DNA from: Escherichia coli
GTDB taxonomy: Bacteria > Pseudomonadota > Gammaproteobacteria > Enterobacterales > Enterobacteriaceae
Assembly: GCF_024298765.1 (NCBI RefSeq)
Contig: NZ_CP101211.1
DNA length: 64,000 nucleotides
Reading direction: 5' to 3' (one strand)
Below are positions 38,101-53,100 of this stretch, piece after piece. The position numbers are program-made. Each line of letters starts with the position of its first letter. Positions within the stretch are counted from its first letter, which is position 1.

Positions 38101-41100
38101 GGGATGAAAAAGAAACAAGCGATGTGTTAAGCCTTATGGCCTTTTTCCGACAATCAAATGATCCTCGCTTAATGAAGAGAGTATTGGCATTGTTTGGAGA
38201 ACAGGAATCAGTTTTGGATGAAGTGGCATTGAGTATGAGAGGAAGAAAAGTTACTTTTGGCGACCTTGCCATCCCGGAGGACAGTTCTCTCGAAACAAAA
38301 ACATTACATTCAAACTTCGTGCGCTTTACCCAGGAAAGTACTGATAAAGTTGAGATAGCAAAACGTTTCGCCAACCTTACGAAATGGATGGAATCGTCGT
38401 CAATCAAGATGAGGAGTAATAAAGGTACAGCAACCTTAACAAAAATTGCTTTAGACACTTGTAAACAGTGGGCAGAAAAGACTGGTTGGATGAATATGAT
38501 CAATCGTGCTGCTGCAATGTCATTAGGCCCTAGGAAGAAGGACGAGGAATACAGCCCAGAGAAAGTAGTCCTATCAACCTTGCATGGTTCAAAGGGTCTT
38601 GAGTGGAATAAAGTAATAATAATGAGTTGTAATGCGGATCAGATACCAAGTAAAAGATCAGTTGGGGAGGAGGCAATAGAAGAAGAAAGACGTTTGCTTT
38701 ATGTTGGATTTACGCGTGCAGAAAAGCAACTTTTTGTAATGTGGTATGGTGACCCTTCTTTCTTTTTAAGAGAATGCAGTGAAGAAAAGATAAAAGAAGC
38801 AGCTAATATTCGAATTTCTCCAGTTTATACAGAATAATTCGATATGGGCATTTACTTATGCTTAAAGCTATAGTATAAAAACAATGAGCTTAAATATCAG
38901 CTCCCAAATTTGAGTAACTTTGCTTAAAGTTACTTTCGCGTTAAGCGTTGATTTAGCCGTGAAAAGCGGCCAGCTTAAACAAGCTGTAAGACACCACCGG
39001 CAAAATGTCACCTTTGTCGCTGGTGCACTTCCCATGCCTGAAAAAGGCAATCTGAATTTACCAAACCGTAACTAATTTAGCTCCTCCTGGAGCTATTTTT
39101 GTTGCGTACTTCTAATGCCAGATAGTATAAATCAGGCGGTTCATAGCTTACGGGAGATGAATGACAGGCTTTGCCTTCGTGTTGAAACAAAAAATTGTTT
39201 CTTCCTTCTTACTATATATAGGTGACCCCAAATGTCTAAAAATAAAGCTCGCAGTAAAGCCCTTCATCAAACCTTTAGTGAAATTATTCCAGAGATGGAT
39301 AAGGCGCTAAACAAACAGCTCTTAGAAGTTCTGATGAAATATACAGAACGTGATAATGAACTGATTGTTATTTTGAATGAGGACGGCCCAAATATCATTG
39401 AACTTAAGTCTCTTAAGCCTGTGTCTTTGTTGGCCGAAAAGCTTTCTGCTTATTCAAGCTATTATCATGTGGATGTTGTGGAGCTCGTGGTCAAGAAAAT
39501 TGATTTCGAAGGAGCTTATAAGCTTCTTAAAGCTTCCCCAGATGTACCACTTTTTAAAAGCTTAACTGAACTGGATAAATATCTTGTTGAGGAGTTTGAA
39601 AAATTCGGATTAAATTCATTTCTTGACGTGGATAATCTGGATTACTCACTTGAAAAAGCCAGTGAACTCAAAAATGAGCAGTTAATAAATTGGGTTTCGG
39701 ACATCATTTGCAAACGTGAAAAATTAACTTTACGTAAGCGTTTTGATGTCGCAGTAAAGGCCCACTACGAAAATGTAGAAAAAATGTATGATACCATTCG
39801 TCCGTTAATGAAAAAACTGGGTTTCCCAGAAGATCTCATGACGCACACCTTTAGTGAGTTAAGCGTTTTTGAAACTAAAGGATGGGACCATGCAATAAAA
39901 TCGAAAATTGAGACTCTCGCTAAGCGTGAAACTCAATATTTAGATGATGCGGCTAAAGCAGAGAATCGACGTCTTGTAACAGAGAAGTTGGAGAACTCTT
40001 TAGCGATTGCACCAACTAAACCAACAAGAAATTGGTTACATATTGCCGGAATTGCCTGTTTGGTAGTCTGCACGTTCATGTATGTAACTAATAAATTTAT
40101 TTAATCCTGTTAAGGGGGAACCCTAACGGGGCTTCTCTTTGAACAAATCGAGGAGCGGAAAATGTCATATCTTGAATATATCAATGAAGTAAAAGTGTCC
40201 GGGATAGTTATCAGTGCTGTGGAGAAAAAAATGACTGACCAGAGTATAGGTTTGTTAATAAAGCTCAAAAATAGGATGAAGACAGAAGTTGATGGTGAAA
40301 TCACTGAGAGAGAATTTTCAGTTCAAATCAAGGTGTCGCCTGAAATGTATTCAACCTGTTTCACTGGTATAAATCAGGGTGATGAGTTGATGGTCTCCGG
40401 TTATATTGTTGTCGATACTATTATGATTGAAGGGAGAGAACATCCTCTTGACTACATGAGAGTGGTAGCAACAAGTAAGTTGGCTCACATACCTAAACCT
40501 CTAAAAGGTTTTGGACAAAGTAGCTTTAATCAGATCTGACATTAAACCCACCCTAAAGGGGAGAAATCCCTTCATGGGATTTCTCCTTTTGGAGTCCCCA
40601 TGAAACAAAAATTTAGGGCTACTGCAATAAGTAGTAATCAACTTAGTTTTTTTTCTATACTCGATATAGATGAAGATGAAATAACGCAAATAGTTGATTC
40701 ACCCAAAGAGCATTTAAATGATGCTTACACGTCCGGATTAAACTTTAAATCAGAAGAAAGTAACATTTCTGAGATAAATTATGATTCTGAAAGGCGTGAA
40801 AATCACCTTTATGAAAAATCCAAATTACTTAAAAATCAGATTTTGCATACAATTAATTTTGCAACAGAAACAGATTATCTATATACGGTTGAAGAATATA
40901 ACCCAGATTTGGGTGGTCTGGTAATAGAATGGACCCCTGAGGATGTGTATGTTGTTTTTCTATCCGCTATGGAAGAGTCTTTGGAAATCATTAAAGAACT
41001 AGTGTTGAGGAGAAAGTTATTCTTCAAAGATGACAATGGTAATATCACAGTGAATCCACTTTTAGAAGCTGAAACACGGTGGTATATGTCAAAATCATTT

Positions 41101-50100: not shown

Positions 50101-53100
50101 AATAAAGAAAGATTGCAGTATCTTTTTTCTCAGGATATTTACGGTAAGTTGTATAATTCCTTAGAGAAAGAATTAAGCTCGTTTTTCTCATTTATCAATG
50201 TTGAGGTGCACGAGTTGTTAAAAGATGCTGTATGCTTTGCATTAAAAATCCTGAATAAGATATCTTTGGATACACCTGAAAGACTTATTAAAGCTTTTAA
50301 TTATCGTGACTGGTATTGTAGTTACGATGTTGAGCTTTTTAGGAAAGGCTTACCTGGTCATATTCTGGAAGAGCTCATTGCTCCAGATATCTTACTTTCA
50401 GACCTTAACGGTTGTAGAAAAATACTTAGAAATGCAAAACGATTTCTAAATGGACATACACAAACCAATTGTGTTTATATTAAATATGAATGATGGTTGG
50501 GGCCTGTTGATACCTCACACTCAGCTAAGTTGATGTCTGACAAAGAAATTAATAACCGAAGTGACTTGAAGAATTTTTCAAAGGTCTTTTTCAAAGAGTG
50601 TTTAAGTTCTGGTAAGTCGGAATATGAAAACCATCTTAGTGAAAAAGAACATGCGCTTCGCTATAATTATTAATTAAAATTATTTTCTCCCATAGGGATT
50701 TCTCCCTATGGGAGAAATCCCTCTATTAAGAGGGTATTGAAATGAATGCTATACAAAAGTTAGTTGAATCTATTCTTGTTAAAATGGGTTTTGTTGGCGC
50801 TGTAGTGGAAAATATATATTTGGATTCAAAACCATTTCGGCATATTCGATTTGTGGCTGATATTCCAGTAATATCTTTTCTACCTCATTTGGTGAAATAT
50901 CTTAAGGGTGCAGACCATCTTTACAGTGGTAACGATGATTTGCATCCTCTTTTCATTTATTTTTCCGAAGCGGCTACATTAAAAGCAGGTCCTGTAAATC
51001 TCGCGAACTTTCGTTTTGAAGTTTCTATAGCTTCAACTCATTTACGACTGGTCTCAGAGCAGCCTGATTTGCTTTTCAAAGGATTTAACCGGGATAATCT
51101 AGAATACGTTTATTACCGCTCAGATTTGGCCTCTAAGGATCTTATACTAGGCCTTGTTGAACACGGTTCTCCTTTCATAAAACATCTACATGGACTTATA
51201 CAAAAGCGAATTTTAAACGAGTTCTCTCTGATTTTTTCTGTTCTTGAAAAGATTTTAGAAAGCGCGAAGCCACAAATTCTTGCTTGCTTCCATAGTGTTG
51301 ATTATGAAATGAACGTAAAAATAATAGCCGAAGCTATACCTGAAACTGTATCTAATCAGATAGTCACATCTGATTATATAGTTAATTCTATATCAGATGC
51401 GGACAAGTTTATAAATCATGTTCGTCGCTATTTAGCAGGCAGGGTAATGAAGAGGCGGATATACGCTGAATTAGATGTTTGTGAAGAAACATCAAGTATT
51501 TCACTAGTGAACTTAGGATGCTTTACGTCTCCTCTGCTCGTTACGGAATATCAAATGTTTAAGCCACACTCTTCAGGGTTATATCGAAAAGCTATAAACA
51601 ACTCCTTAAAACAGTTCAAACCAGAAATGCATGTACCTTCTGAAGAACTCTTTTATAATTAATCTAACCCATCCGGGAACCTGCTTCCCGGTGGGAAGCA
51701 CTTCCTTTTTAGTCATGAGGTAGTGTAAATGTTTAAAGAATCTGACCACGTGGAATTTGTTAGTGCCTTTCTTTATCAAAATTTAGGCCTTAATGTTTCC
51801 GCTGACGATATAACCGTTCAATTATCTGATACTTCGTTCGACAAAGTAACCTTTGATTACGATGTAGATATCGATAATTTAAATTGTATGTTGGATCTCT
51901 ACATATCTGAGCTAATAAAGCACAACGCATCTTACTCCGATTCTATTCTTTTGAAACAAAAAATAATTTATTTTCTTGGAGTATTTAAGAATTTCGGATT
52001 TTTTACGTTTGATATTCGCGGATATAGTAATACTTTAAGCCCAGTTAAAGTTATTGATATTGTTTCAATGATTATTAATGACTGTGAAGAGTTATCTAAA
52101 GCTAATTCTTCTACTGATGCTATAAGAAATCTTTATCTCGATAAAATGAAGGTGGATGGGAAAGTGTTAGTTGCGAAATTTGCACTTAAACAGTTTTTTC
52201 ATTCCGACTTTGGTGACTTTATCTCATTTGTCGAGAAAAGAATTACAGATTGTCTTAATGAAACTTTAAGGATTATCAAAGCTGTTGAACATGGCTTTGT
52301 ACGTGTAGGGCAGCATAAGATTAATCGCCGTATTAATGATGACTTAAAGTTATGCATTGATTTCAATACTGATGATTATCCGGCAAATATGCCAGATATA
52401 TATATTAAGTTTAACGATACATTTGATGGGAACGGGGCGTTATATTGTGACAATGATGCCCTCATATCCCTCTATACCGATGTTGCTTCAATTATCAATG
52501 TGCCGGTGATGATGGAAGTAAGATTGATCAATAAAAGAGGGCGTGTTGTCTGTGATTCTTCGCATTCAACTTACGTATCTCTCGAAAGTAATGACCGATA
52601 CAGAGTAACTGATCGCACATTACTAATAACTGAAGCTTTTGACGATTTTCGTAACGCGTCTCAATGATCCTTTTGCTTCAGTCCAAAAAAGTAACTTTGG
52701 TTGGCTGAAGACACTTGTCTATGACAATGTAAAATCTGTCGCTGGCATCTTCTTTTAGCTTAACCAAATTTTTATCTAACCCAGTGGGGAAGTCGCTTCC
52801 CTTCTGGGGCACTTCCTCTCAAATTCGAGGTAGTGTATATGACACATTCATCTGATGATAAAAACTATGTCCGAGCAGTTCTGAGTTATCTTGGCATAGA
52901 TTTTGATGAGGCGGATATAGTATTAAGTGTTTGCCATTGTCAAAGTGACGAGCTTTCTTTTACCTGTAATATCAAAGCTATTGAACTCAAGAATGCTGTT
53001 GATTTATATGTCGATAGTATCTCTGAGAATGAAATAGAAGCTTTAAACAGAGAATCTTTAAAATCGCGACTCTGTTACTTTCTTGAGGTGTTTGACGCAG

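Follow-up and report, generated by a model that had tools for sequence, protein, structure and literature searches.

In RNA-unfolding coupling (rpmI-rplT, phage f1 VII-IX and MS2 coat-lysis/replicase) the ribosome binding site (RBS) of a downstream gene is held in structure, and its relief by translation of the upstream gene has been proposed. In translational attenuation of the ermC and cat-86 type, pairings 1:2, 2:3 and 3:4 exclude one another and a ribosome on segment 1 decides the state of the Shine-Dalgarno sequence (SD) in segment 4, and in the mRNAs of type I toxins (hok/sok; H. pylori aapA1) alternative exclusive pairings keep the SD closed until the mRNA is remodelled. The RNase III sites of the phage T7 early region are single irregular hairpins of ~60 nucleotides (nt) between genes, which can make the upstream message more stable and influence translation 3' of them. 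Here we describe a family of palindromic elements at the gene junctions (designated J) of a gene array (genes designated g) that lies between about 40 and 53 kb in a 64,000-nt stretch of Escherichia coli DNA (contig NZ_CP101211.1, assembly GCF_024298765.1; henceforth referred to as ‘the window’), and which had been noticed earlier from the sequence alone (henceforth referred to as the original prediction). As folded in silico, a typical element consists of two hairpins: hairpin 2, in which an anti-SD segment pairs with the SD of the next gene, and, 5' of it, hairpin 1, which holds a mimic of that SD. We consider it very probable that the elements are translational control modules that act in the sense strand.

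Of the known systems, RNA-unfolding coupling is the closest in concept. The likeness lies in the structured downstream RBS, and rpmI-rplT, too, has a long spacer (+52 nt; review PMC12548453). However, in the known cases the inhibitory partner lies in or beside the upstream coding sequence (CDS) and is melted directly, whereas here the hairpin that the partner forms with the SD lies entirely between the genes, a further hairpin in which an SD mimic is masked intervenes, and the module recurs at 10-20 consecutive junctions across plasmid families. As this hairpin is beyond the reach of the upstream ribosome, the defining step of known coupling, in which that ribosome directly melts the inhibitory structure, does not apply: the anti-SD begins ~30-45 nt past the stop codon, the ribosomal footprint covers ~10-16 nt, and only hairpin 1 comes within reach of the ribosome, at about half of the junctions. 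The masked SD mimic could be the feature that bridges this gap. Like the ermC and cat-86 leaders, the elements form a chain of mutually exclusive pairings; unlike them, they involve neither a dedicated leader peptide nor stalling that depends on a drug, the upstream open reading frame (ORF) is an ordinary gene (or a small ORF at J10), and it is the 5' arm and loop of hairpin 1, not its 3' arm, that compete for the anti-SD (with J6 of pNDM-MAR as an exception). Type I toxin mRNAs are single-gene messages remodelled by 3' processing or antisense RNA, in contrast to the serial intercistronic modules seen here, and the T7 RNase III sites, although they too place structured elements between successive genes on a long polycistronic mRNA, contain neither SD mimic nor anti-SD logic. 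No description of the elements was found in the open full-text literature, including papers on R27, IncC and coupling (subscription papers lay outside this search).

The window matches IncHI2 megaplasmids in PLSDB at 100% identity (1,411 matching records, of which 1,126 reach at least 99%) and equals bases 1-64000 of pS25-IncHI2 (IncHI2A, MOBH, MPF_F), bar a 777-bp IS1 insertion at 53429. The palindromes sit in a co-directional run of + strand genes that begins just 3' of trhI and comprises, in order, three hypothetical genes, a CobS-like AAA ATPase, a small ORF, a DUF3150 gene, a VWA gene, a small ORF, a toprim gene and six hypothetical genes. NCBIfam and PADLOC assigned the array proteins no function beyond the weak CobS-like AAA match, and a phage origin was rejected since there was no phage match. 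The same genes in the same order are found in IncHI2, IncHI1B (L002), IncHI1A (L005) and three pNDM-MAR-type Klebsiella plasmids (L006, L010 and L011); the Citrobacter plasmid H105 encodes the same proteins as L002 and was therefore not counted as a separate lineage, and CP044306.1 (90% identity) was dropped as a comparator, as it has hardly any annotated CDS and appears to be an error-rich assembly. Judged by this identical gene order in six IncHI-type lineages, the array is part of the conserved IncHI backbone and not the accessory, cassette-like array of the original prediction. Since gene order is identical, the elements do not mark gain or loss breakpoints, and the suggested role as recombination sites is not borne out. 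In R27, a nine-gene cluster is reported to be co-induced 5-23x at 25 C (PMC7366339, where trhN is given as R0005). By gene-order mapping through the IncHI1A plasmid, these nine genes would be g1 through the toprim gene (39232-47918) and would thus span J2-J9.

All 13 sites that had been listed are GC-rich imperfect palindromes in gaps between co-directional + strand genes. When 14 junction segments were folded against 200 dinucleotide shuffles each, 12 had z-scores of -3 or below (Table 1), so that structure exceeds chance, and a sliding fold (45 nt) over all 64 kb placed the majority of its strongest + strand structures at junctions between 40 and 53 kb. The 12-mer GGGAGAAATCCC does occur in swapped arm order, at 40559(+), 40576(-, with 1 mismatch), 50695(-) and 50710(+), which makes 4 matches against 0.25 expected, and GGATCAC is present three times, at 49687(+), 49707(-) and 49731(+). 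The motif AACCC-N4-GGGR was matched 6 times (0.58 expected), and 4 of these sites are inside the array. As proposed, nearly every junction has a common architecture built from differing stems, and each copy is unique in sequence save J14/J15; the resemblance of the palindromes at 51668 and 52780, which had been offered as an example of the general pattern, is real but is a matter of descent, g14 and g15 being paralogues of 27% identity. A dispersed repeat (REP/BIME/MITE-like) would share sequence among its copies, and none is shared, the stems differing everywhere save J14/J15. A cmscan of 36-60 kb against Rfam at E <= 1 returned three far-sub-threshold chance matches, none of them at a junction. 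The claim that a T-run usually accompanies the palindrome needs amending: a T-run is often nearby but does not follow directly, as 6-12 nt of anti-SD intervene, and in the minimum free energy (MFE) fold it is located in the 5' arm and loop of the second hairpin. What had been overlooked is that the segment 3' of each palindrome pairs with the SD region of the next gene; the module at 48129-48185, the long conserved hairpin at 46605-46671 and the AT-rich palindrome at 47950-47997 had likewise been missed. The RBS-overlapping repeats, by contrast, had been recognised, and they look like functional parts of the elements; an attenuator-like role in RNA, also suggested at the time, fits much better than chance.

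Folded from stop to start codon, the junctions give two side-by-side hairpins with a median gap of 1 nt, and the picture is the same in IncHI2, IncHI1A and IncHI1B. Hairpin 1 is GC-clamped and has the form A-A-CCC-N4-GGG-R-A ... CCC-N4-GGG; the 8 nt 5' of it are A/U-rich with 0-3% G. In hairpin 2, the 6-12 nt that follow hairpin 1 (with the T-run, if present) pair with the SD and spacer of the next gene, often as far as the start codon, around an A/U-rich loop. The inner 5' arm of hairpin 1 (GGGRA) together with its loop constitutes the SD mimic, which resembles the real SD region and has complementarity to that anti-SD as well. Two junctions are variants: at J3 one extended hairpin takes in the SD at its foot, and at J4 the start codon is masked. 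J5 and J9 are without the two-hairpin module. Of the junctions with 40 nt or more, the MFE fold had hairpin 1 directly followed by a hairpin 2 that pairs with the SD in 11/14 (IncHI2), 11/13, 12/13, 5/7, 6/7, 6/7 and 19/21 (Vibrio); with one loose detector used throughout, this amounts to 70 of the 82 junctions in seven replicons compared to 6 of 20 controls (Fisher p = 2.7e-6), a pooled value less to be trusted than the per-lineage tests given below, because the lineages are related. Nearly every gap in the operon is predicted to encode paired hairpins that mask the next RBS and a decoy copy of it, a design that would probably gate translation one gene at a time. An H-type pseudoknot between the folded hairpin 1 loop and the anti-SD was rejected because a 1-nt linker cannot span the 11-bp stem; on these steric grounds the mimic:anti-SD and anti-SD:SD pairings are mutually exclusive.

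The asymmetry of the helices shows which molecule is concerned. G.U outnumbered A.C oppositions 54:9 when the sense strand was folded and 39:16 when its complement was folded, and of the two folds that of the sense strand had the greater stability at 34 of 51 junctions (p = 2e-4). This asymmetry, together with the SD as pairing partner, argues for a function in mRNA and not in duplex DNA. Consistent with RBS sequestration in mRNA structure, the cost of opening the RBS (-14..+3) had a median of 9.4 kcal/mol for 15 array genes, compared to 5.2 kcal/mol for 30 other genes in the window (p = 0.003-0.006), and was only 3.9 kcal/mol for the first gene of the operon; the predicted unpaired probability of the SD arm was 0.00-0.2, and a fixed-window measure of SD accessibility gave a modest contrast only. 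In a test that uses no predicted structures, duplexes between the upstream part of a junction and its SD region were better than non-cognate and shuffled ones in all six IncHI-type lineages (p = 2e-4 to 1e-2). For anti-SD:SD duplexes the cognate advantage had p = 2e-6 to 3e-9. The mimic (the end of the hairpin 1 5' arm plus loop) paired with its own anti-SD at -9.2 kcal/mol compared to -5.8 kcal/mol with non-cognate ones, with p = 4e-4 to 5e-6 in larger sets (~1e-4 within lineages, n = 10-12) and ~2e-3 to 5e-3 at n = 5-6. Specificity for the own junction held for both pairings in seven replicons. The mimic result rests on positional definitions of the segments; with automatic extraction of the anti-SD, which was contaminated by long-range pairs, it was not significant. 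The two duplexes that compete for the anti-SD have almost the same energy in IncHI1/2 (for example -12.3/-12.5, -11.6/-11.5 and -8.8/-8.7).

Comparison of orthologous junctions showed that the layout is kept while the letters differ, with three partners (mimic, anti-SD and SD) changing together at J12, J6 and J10. At J12, a triple concerted change converts GGATCAC/GTGATCC/GGATCAC in IncHI2 into GGATTAC/GTAATCC/GGATTAC in IncHI1A/1B (in full, GGGGATCAC / GTGATCCC / GGATCAC-atg versus GGGGATTAC / GTAATCCC / GGATTAC-atg). J6 reads GGGAAA / GGGTTTCCCC / GGAGAAACCC in IncHI2, GGTTTTTCCC / GGAGAAAACC in IncHI1B and GGGAAATAT / GATATTTTTCC / GGAGAAATATC in pNDM-MAR, and J10 reads GAGTAT / ATGCTC / GAGCAT in IncHI1/2 compared to GGGAGAG / GCTCTCC / GGAGAGC in pNDM-MAR. 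Alignment columns varied at 15% when paired and 34% when unpaired, and 20 double substitutions kept a pair where 10 broke one. The layout persists in pNDM-MAR-type plasmids at ~35% VWA identity, in a Vibrio parahaemolyticus MOBH plasmid at ~24% VWA identity (19/21 junctions, both specificity tests p <= 5e-6) and in the homologous module downstream of traN in IncC pSN254 (6/7 junctions with the design); in the first 50 kb of pSN254, where junctions are mostly <15 nt, the design is absent.

What these pairings might do together can be outlined from the folding model. We lean, if only slightly, towards a three-part translational switch between cistrons that would stay closed until hairpin 1 is opened, probably by the upstream ribosome; its anatomy is well supported and its trigger we infer. 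In the computed ground state, which the comparisons bear out, hairpins 1 and 2 are both formed, with the RBS closed and the mimic locked in hairpin 1. Opening of hairpin 1 from its 5' side would let the mimic take the anti-SD by strand exchange and so free the real SD, the likeliest opener being a ribosome that terminates at, or reads through, the end of the upstream ORF. Translation could in this way be relayed from cistron to cistron over spacers of 55-80 nt, which are too long for direct ribosome bridging. In the equilibrium model, forced unpairing of the outer 3-7 nt of hairpin 1 raised SD accessibility from 0.00-0.2 to 0.4-0.9, a response seen at J6, J7, J10, J12, J13 and J14 in IncHI2 and at J6, J7 and J12-J15 in IncHI1B, and unpairing of the whole 5' arm including the mimic closed the SD again. 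Hairpin 1, with a stem of -15 to -20 kcal/mol, starts 0-12 nt past the stop codon at about half of the junctions; at 7 junctions in Vibrio and 2 in IncC there is no gap at all (TAACCC). When a ribosome was placed on the actual stop codon in the model, the SD opened at 7 of 11 Vibrio junctions, at J4 and J14 of IncHI and at J9 of the pNDM-MAR type, and at J6 and J12 only with a long footprint. Some long junctions contain small ORFs that end at hairpin 1 (36 codons at 48047-48157, 43 codons in Vibrio and 13 codons, with a good SD, in Klebsiella); small ORFs inside hairpin 1 at J7 and J12 were taken as chance, having no SD or not being conserved. For IncHI2 only, where a T-run often follows the mimic:anti-SD helix, this helix, if formed during transcription, could also be a partial terminator and give graded expression along the operon. 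We regard the full mechanism, a relay driven by upstream ribosomes, as having roughly even chances at best, and suggest tentatively, with somewhat less confidence than in the switch itself, that the elements are a hitherto unrecognised class of cis-regulatory RNA in which a relay from masked mimic to anti-SD to SD would turn an operon of 10-20 genes into a domino cascade, with the alternative helix of IncHI2 doubling as a co-transcriptional attenuator.

Several points weigh against the switch and its proposed trigger. The trigger is the weak point: as modelled, it misfits J2, J7, J8, J11, J13, J15, most pNDM-MAR-type junctions and several putative 5' leaders. At J7, J11, J15 and several Vibrio/IncC junctions hairpin 1 and the nearest upstream stop codon are 13 to >100 nt apart, with no small ORF ending at the hairpin, and some junctions without a nearby stop look like 5' leaders of primary transcripts, where there would be no upstream ribosome. 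One study found that structure just 3' of the stop codon correlated negatively with coupling efficiency (review PMC12548453). In the pNDM-MAR-type lineages the anti-SD:SD duplex (~-15 kcal/mol) is well above the mimic:anti-SD duplex (~-8 kcal/mol) in strength, in contrast to the balance in IncHI1/2. One-sided substitutions on MAFFT columns broke a pair in 70 cases and kept it in 39, which is not clean covariation and is partly register noise, MAFFT placing the IncHI1/2 and pNDM-MAR-type hairpins in different registers. Finally, all structures described here are predictions, and the relatedness of the lineages makes the pooled p-values overstate independence.

Processing and a trans-acting factor are live alternatives to the relay and may coexist with it. 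As punctuation for processing or stability, RNase E would cut the hairpin 2 loop or the A/U-rich 5' flank, or RNase III would cut the stacked helices; 3' exonucleases would then trim to hairpin 1 and protect the upstream cistron, and removal of the anti-SD would free the SD; this, too, could coexist with the switch. The stability of hairpin 1, its abutment on hairpin 2 and the A/U-rich, G-poor flank and loops suit such a role, which would also operate at junctions without a nearby stop and in putative 5' leaders, and processed transcripts have been reported for another R27 operon (PMC7366339). We nevertheless think it unlikely, since processing leaves unexplained both the complementarity of the inner arm and loop of hairpin 1 to their own anti-SD (per-lineage p ~1e-4) and the energetic balance of the two duplexes. 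Improbable in turn is relief of SD occlusion by temperature or by a trans factor on the AACCC-N4-GGGRA hairpin (for example an RNA chaperone, a small RNA or a protein like CsrA that bridges GGA motifs) instead of by upstream ribosomes. IncHI transfer and the array operon are thermoregulated, the hairpin 1 signature is conserved across families, GGA occurs in many mimics and SDs, and either agent would also work in 5' leaders; but opening the RBS costs more at the inducing 25 C than at 37 C (11.0 compared to 8.7 kcal/mol), GGA is missing from the mimics of J7, J8 and J11, no candidate factor was found, and the array proteins are without RNA-binding annotation in NCBIfam and PADLOC. The SD-pairing duplexes have -9 to -16 kcal/mol, and stems of -10 to -16 kcal/mol exceed those of typical RNA thermometers.

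That the palindromes are plain Rho-independent terminators or attenuators insulating each gene, with SD pairing incidental, we likewise regard as improbable. A terminator scan of 38.8-58.7 kb found 29 sites where 15.2 +/- 3.8 were expected, many of them at junctions, T-runs (>=5 of 7) follow the anti-SD or hairpin 1 at 7 of 11 IncHI2 junctions, and the elements share a GC-rich stem with such terminators. The sites at 46578-46595 and 47928-47950 do look like ordinary, canonical terminators, which upholds part of the original prediction, and these two and hairpin 1 of J8 have a stem directly (0-2 nt) followed by a U-run; at J3, J6, J7 and J12 stem plus U-run arises only for the alternative mimic:anti-SD or short helices, and J2, J11, J13 and J15 are without that form. 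A terminator plus T-run is not the conserved core: unlike in Rho-independent terminators, the T-run is mostly 6-12 nt off the main stem, parted from hairpin 1 by the anti-SD and paired with the A-rich spacer of the next gene in the MFE fold, and the anti-SD:SD pairing is junction-specific and covaries. T-runs are not conserved (7/11 IncHI2, 7/11 IncHI1B, 4/12 IncHI1A and 4/19 Vibrio), promoter-like sites in the array are not enriched (38 compared to 50 +/- 6.9 expected) and, by gene-order mapping, the R27 genes across J2-J9 are co-induced, from which it follows that termination is at most a lineage-specific overlay. Least probable by far are sites that act in DNA (cassette boundaries, attC- or Xer-like recombination sites, or palindromes bound by protein as duplex). 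As in integrons with their attC sites, every gene boundary has its imperfect palindrome, and 3' of the array there is a gene for a tyrosine recombinase; however, gene order is the same in six IncHI-type lineages with no cassette shuffling, there is no common core beyond CCC/GGG, the strand asymmetry favours sense-strand RNA as the site of function, and covariation is with the SD and spacer of the following gene. The attC cores RYYYAAC/GTTRRRY in the right order were absent from the junction sequences, and J2 has GTTAAGG...CCCTAAC reversed and with the wrong terminal bases.

If the proposed switch is real, megaplasmids control a large, conserved, conjugation-linked operon gene by gene at the level of translation through a compact and undescribed RNA device, and a strand-exchange relay across a spacer would be a third mechanism beside the two textbook models of translational coupling. 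It would help to explain the fixed protein ratios and low host cost of long plasmid operons, and would provide a small, portable and tunable part for synthetic operons. The AACCC-N4-GGGRA hairpin plus anti-SD could serve as an annotation signature in IncHI, IncC and Vibrio MOBH plasmids, by which true start codons are located along with small ORFs that had been missed. The carriers of the module (IncHI, downstream of traN/trhI, one IncC and one Vibrio MOBH plasmid) are major vehicles of antibiotic resistance.

Table 1. Predicted elements at the array junctions, in window coordinates; z-scores are those of the folded junction segments against dinucleotide shuffles, and x denotes pairing.
Junction	Element	Coordinates	Strand	z	Remarks
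J2	Hairpin 1: CCTGTTAAGGGGGAACCCTAACGGG	40106-40130	+	-3.6	Begins 1 nt past g1 stop; MFE; same fold predicted in IncHI1A/1B
J2	Hairpin 2: anti-SD GCTTCTCTTT (40131-40140) x SD arm ATCGAGGAGC (40147-40156)	40131-40156	+		Start 40162; in IncHI1 CTTCTCT x AGAGAAG beside start codon
J3	Variant, one extended hairpin: GGAGAAATCCC / GGGATTTCTCC, then TTTT	40550-40595	+	-3.0	3' base takes in SD GGAG of g3 (start 40600); Klebsiella-type GGGAGAAATCCC / GGGTTTCTCC / GGAGAACCC
J4	Hairpin 1: GCCACTGGCAAACATCTGCCAGAGGGC	41581-41607	+	-1.8	Weakest junction; loop GCAAACA complementary to TGTTTGC 3' of hairpin
J4	Hairpin 2 variant: GGTGTTTGCATTTT x AAAAAUG + first AAA ATPase codons	41608-41646	+		Start codon masked, not SD; fold took in 12 nt of ORF
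J6	Hairpin 1: CCCTATCGGGAAATCTTTCCCGTTGGGG	43005-43032	+	-4.3	SD mimic CGGGAAATCT at 43011-43020
J6	Hairpin 2: anti-SD GGGTTTCCCC (then T8) x GGAGAAACCC	43034-43061	+		Immediately 5' of start 43062
J7	Hairpin 1: CCCAGATGGGTACTTCACCATCTGGG	44210-44235	+	-5.1	SD mimic TGGGTACTTC at 44216-44225
J7	Hairpin 2: anti-SD GAGTACCCCTTT x AAAGAGGTATTC	44237-44265	+		VWA gene start 44267; in IncHI1 TGAGTACC x GGTACTCA, perfect pairing
J8	Hairpin 1: ACCCAATCGGGGCAAAAGGCCCCGGTGGGT	46288-46317	+	-5.4	SD mimic GGGGCAAAA; T5 after 1 nt, so terminator-like too
J8	Hairpin 2: anti-SD TTTTGCTCC x GGAGCAAAA	46320-46349	+		Start 46351; pNDM-MAR-type ATGTTTGCTC / GAGCAAACAT
J9a	Plain terminator-like hairpin: GAGGGCCC-CC-GGGCCCTC, then TTTCTT	46578-46595	+		Compensatory change in IncHI1B: AAGGGCCA..TGGCCCTT
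J9b	Long hairpin: TTCTGCGTTGTGGGTTTCTC...GAGAAACTCACAATGCCAGA	46605-46671	+	-9.3 (whole J9)	5' of toprim gene; not two-hairpin module; whole J9 folds at -62.3 kcal/mol
J10a	Strong GC hairpin: CTCCCCCGC-TTTTT-GCGGGGGGG	47928-47950	+	-8.0	
J10	Conserved unannotated small ORF, 36 codons: MLAQLNKCAVLLAMVGCMTW (MLAQLNKCAVLLAMVGCMTWLFHKLLKPITGVLPLW)	48047-48157	+		Passes through J10 hairpin 1
J10b	Hairpin 1: CCATAACGGGAGTATTACCGTTATGG	48129-48154	+	-5.2	SD mimic GGGAGTATTA in loop; compensatory A-T to C-G change in IncHI1
J10b	Hairpin 2: anti-SD GATGCTCGTCG x CGGAGAGCATT	48156-48185	+		Start 48189
J11	Hairpin 1: TCCCTGATGGCCAACCTGCATCAGGGA	48737-48763	+	-2.1	Weak
J11	Hairpin 2: anti-SD GGCCTC x GAGGCT	48764-48786	+		Start 48789
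J12	Hairpin 1: CCCATGTGGGGATCACACCCCATATGGG	49678-49705	+	-6.9	SD mimic GGGGATCACA at 49684-49694
J12	Hairpin 2: anti-SD GTGATCCCTTTT x GAGAGAGGATCAC	49707-49737	+		Start 49738
J13	Hairpin 1, 15-bp stem: TTTCTCCCATAGGGA / TCCCTATGGGAGAAA	50684-50717	+	-5.7	Overlaps alternative hairpin GGGATTTCTCCC / GGGAGAAATCCC
J13	Hairpin 2: CCCTCT x SD AGAGGG	50719-50734	+		Start 50742; IncHI1 CCCTC / GAGGG
J14	Hairpin 1: CCCATCCGGGAACCTGCTTCCCGGTGGG	51668-51695	+	-4.1	Begins 5 nt past stop
J14	Hairpin 2: anti-SD GCACTTCCTT x GAGGTAGTGT	51698-51726	+		Start 51729; IncHI1 GGAAGC / GCTTCC / GGAAGT
J15	Hairpin 1: CCCAGTGGGGAAGTCGCTTCCCTTCTGGG	52780-52808	+	-5.1	SD mimic GGGAAGTCG
J15	Hairpin 2: anti-SD GCACTTCCTC x GAGGTAGTGT	52809-52836	+		Start 52839

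The long hairpin of J9b is near-invariant in six IncHI-type lineages even though the neighbouring proteins are only 35-40% identical; it is without an Rfam match and may function as a regulatory RNA or leader, or else as a site in DNA for the toprim protein. The hairpin of J10a probably ends the first transcription unit, at a place that by gene mapping coincides with the end of the R27 induced cluster. Overlapping its 3' arm is a perfect AT-rich palindrome with 16-bp arms (GGTTATCTTATCAATA...TATTGATAAGATAACC, 47950-47997), in whose place IncHI1 plasmids have a palindrome of other sequence, and which may be the operator of a second transcription unit. In the small ORF of J10 the N-terminal 20 residues are conserved in IncHI1A/B, and the stop codon falls at or in hairpin 1 in all three lineages (+3 nt from the 5' base of hairpin 1 in IncHI1B and -6 nt in IncHI1A).

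Upstream of the array, the 394-nt region from trhI to the first array gene contains a block (TATAAATCAGGCGGTTCATAGCTTACGGGAGATGAATGACAGGCTTTGCC, 39126-39175) that is conserved with few substitutions in IncHI2, IncHI1 and pNDM-MAR-type plasmids and may be the promoter or the leader from which the 25 C-induced operon is expressed. The block starts with GGCGGT, but reading the J1 leader as an RfaH/ops element was rejected, as agreement with ops is confined to the first 6 of its 12 positions. In IncC and Vibrio, a near-identical leader precedes the AAA ATPase gene and consists of AAACAAACAGCA, a palindrome (AATTAACGTTAATT in IncC) and then AGCCCAACCGGGC (43405-43623 and 48260-48458 in the IncC plasmid, L015; 2938-3150 in the Vibrio plasmid, L013); in IncC it is also found 5' of the DUF3150 gene, and the core AAACAGCA recurs in four further long Vibrio junctions. 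This leader is possibly an activator-dependent promoter followed by a two-hairpin module in the 5' untranslated region.

Elsewhere in the window, the G+C content of 12000-16000 is 0.47-0.50 compared to ~0.42 window-wide, and the PLSDB gene table, which is known to be incomplete, is empty between 11636 and 16002. Within the array, g12 (49738-50741 region) encodes 251 aa in IncHI2 and 311 aa in IncHI1, and J13 (248 nt) may hold a remnant of the g12 3' end, part of which is a 17-codon ORF whose stop codon lies 9 nt ahead of hairpin 1. The IS1 copy (53429-54196), which is missing from the otherwise identical reference plasmid, is flanked by a 9-bp target duplication (TTCACGCTC; 53420-53428 and 54197-54205) and splits g15 (start 52839), the last paralogous gene of the array.

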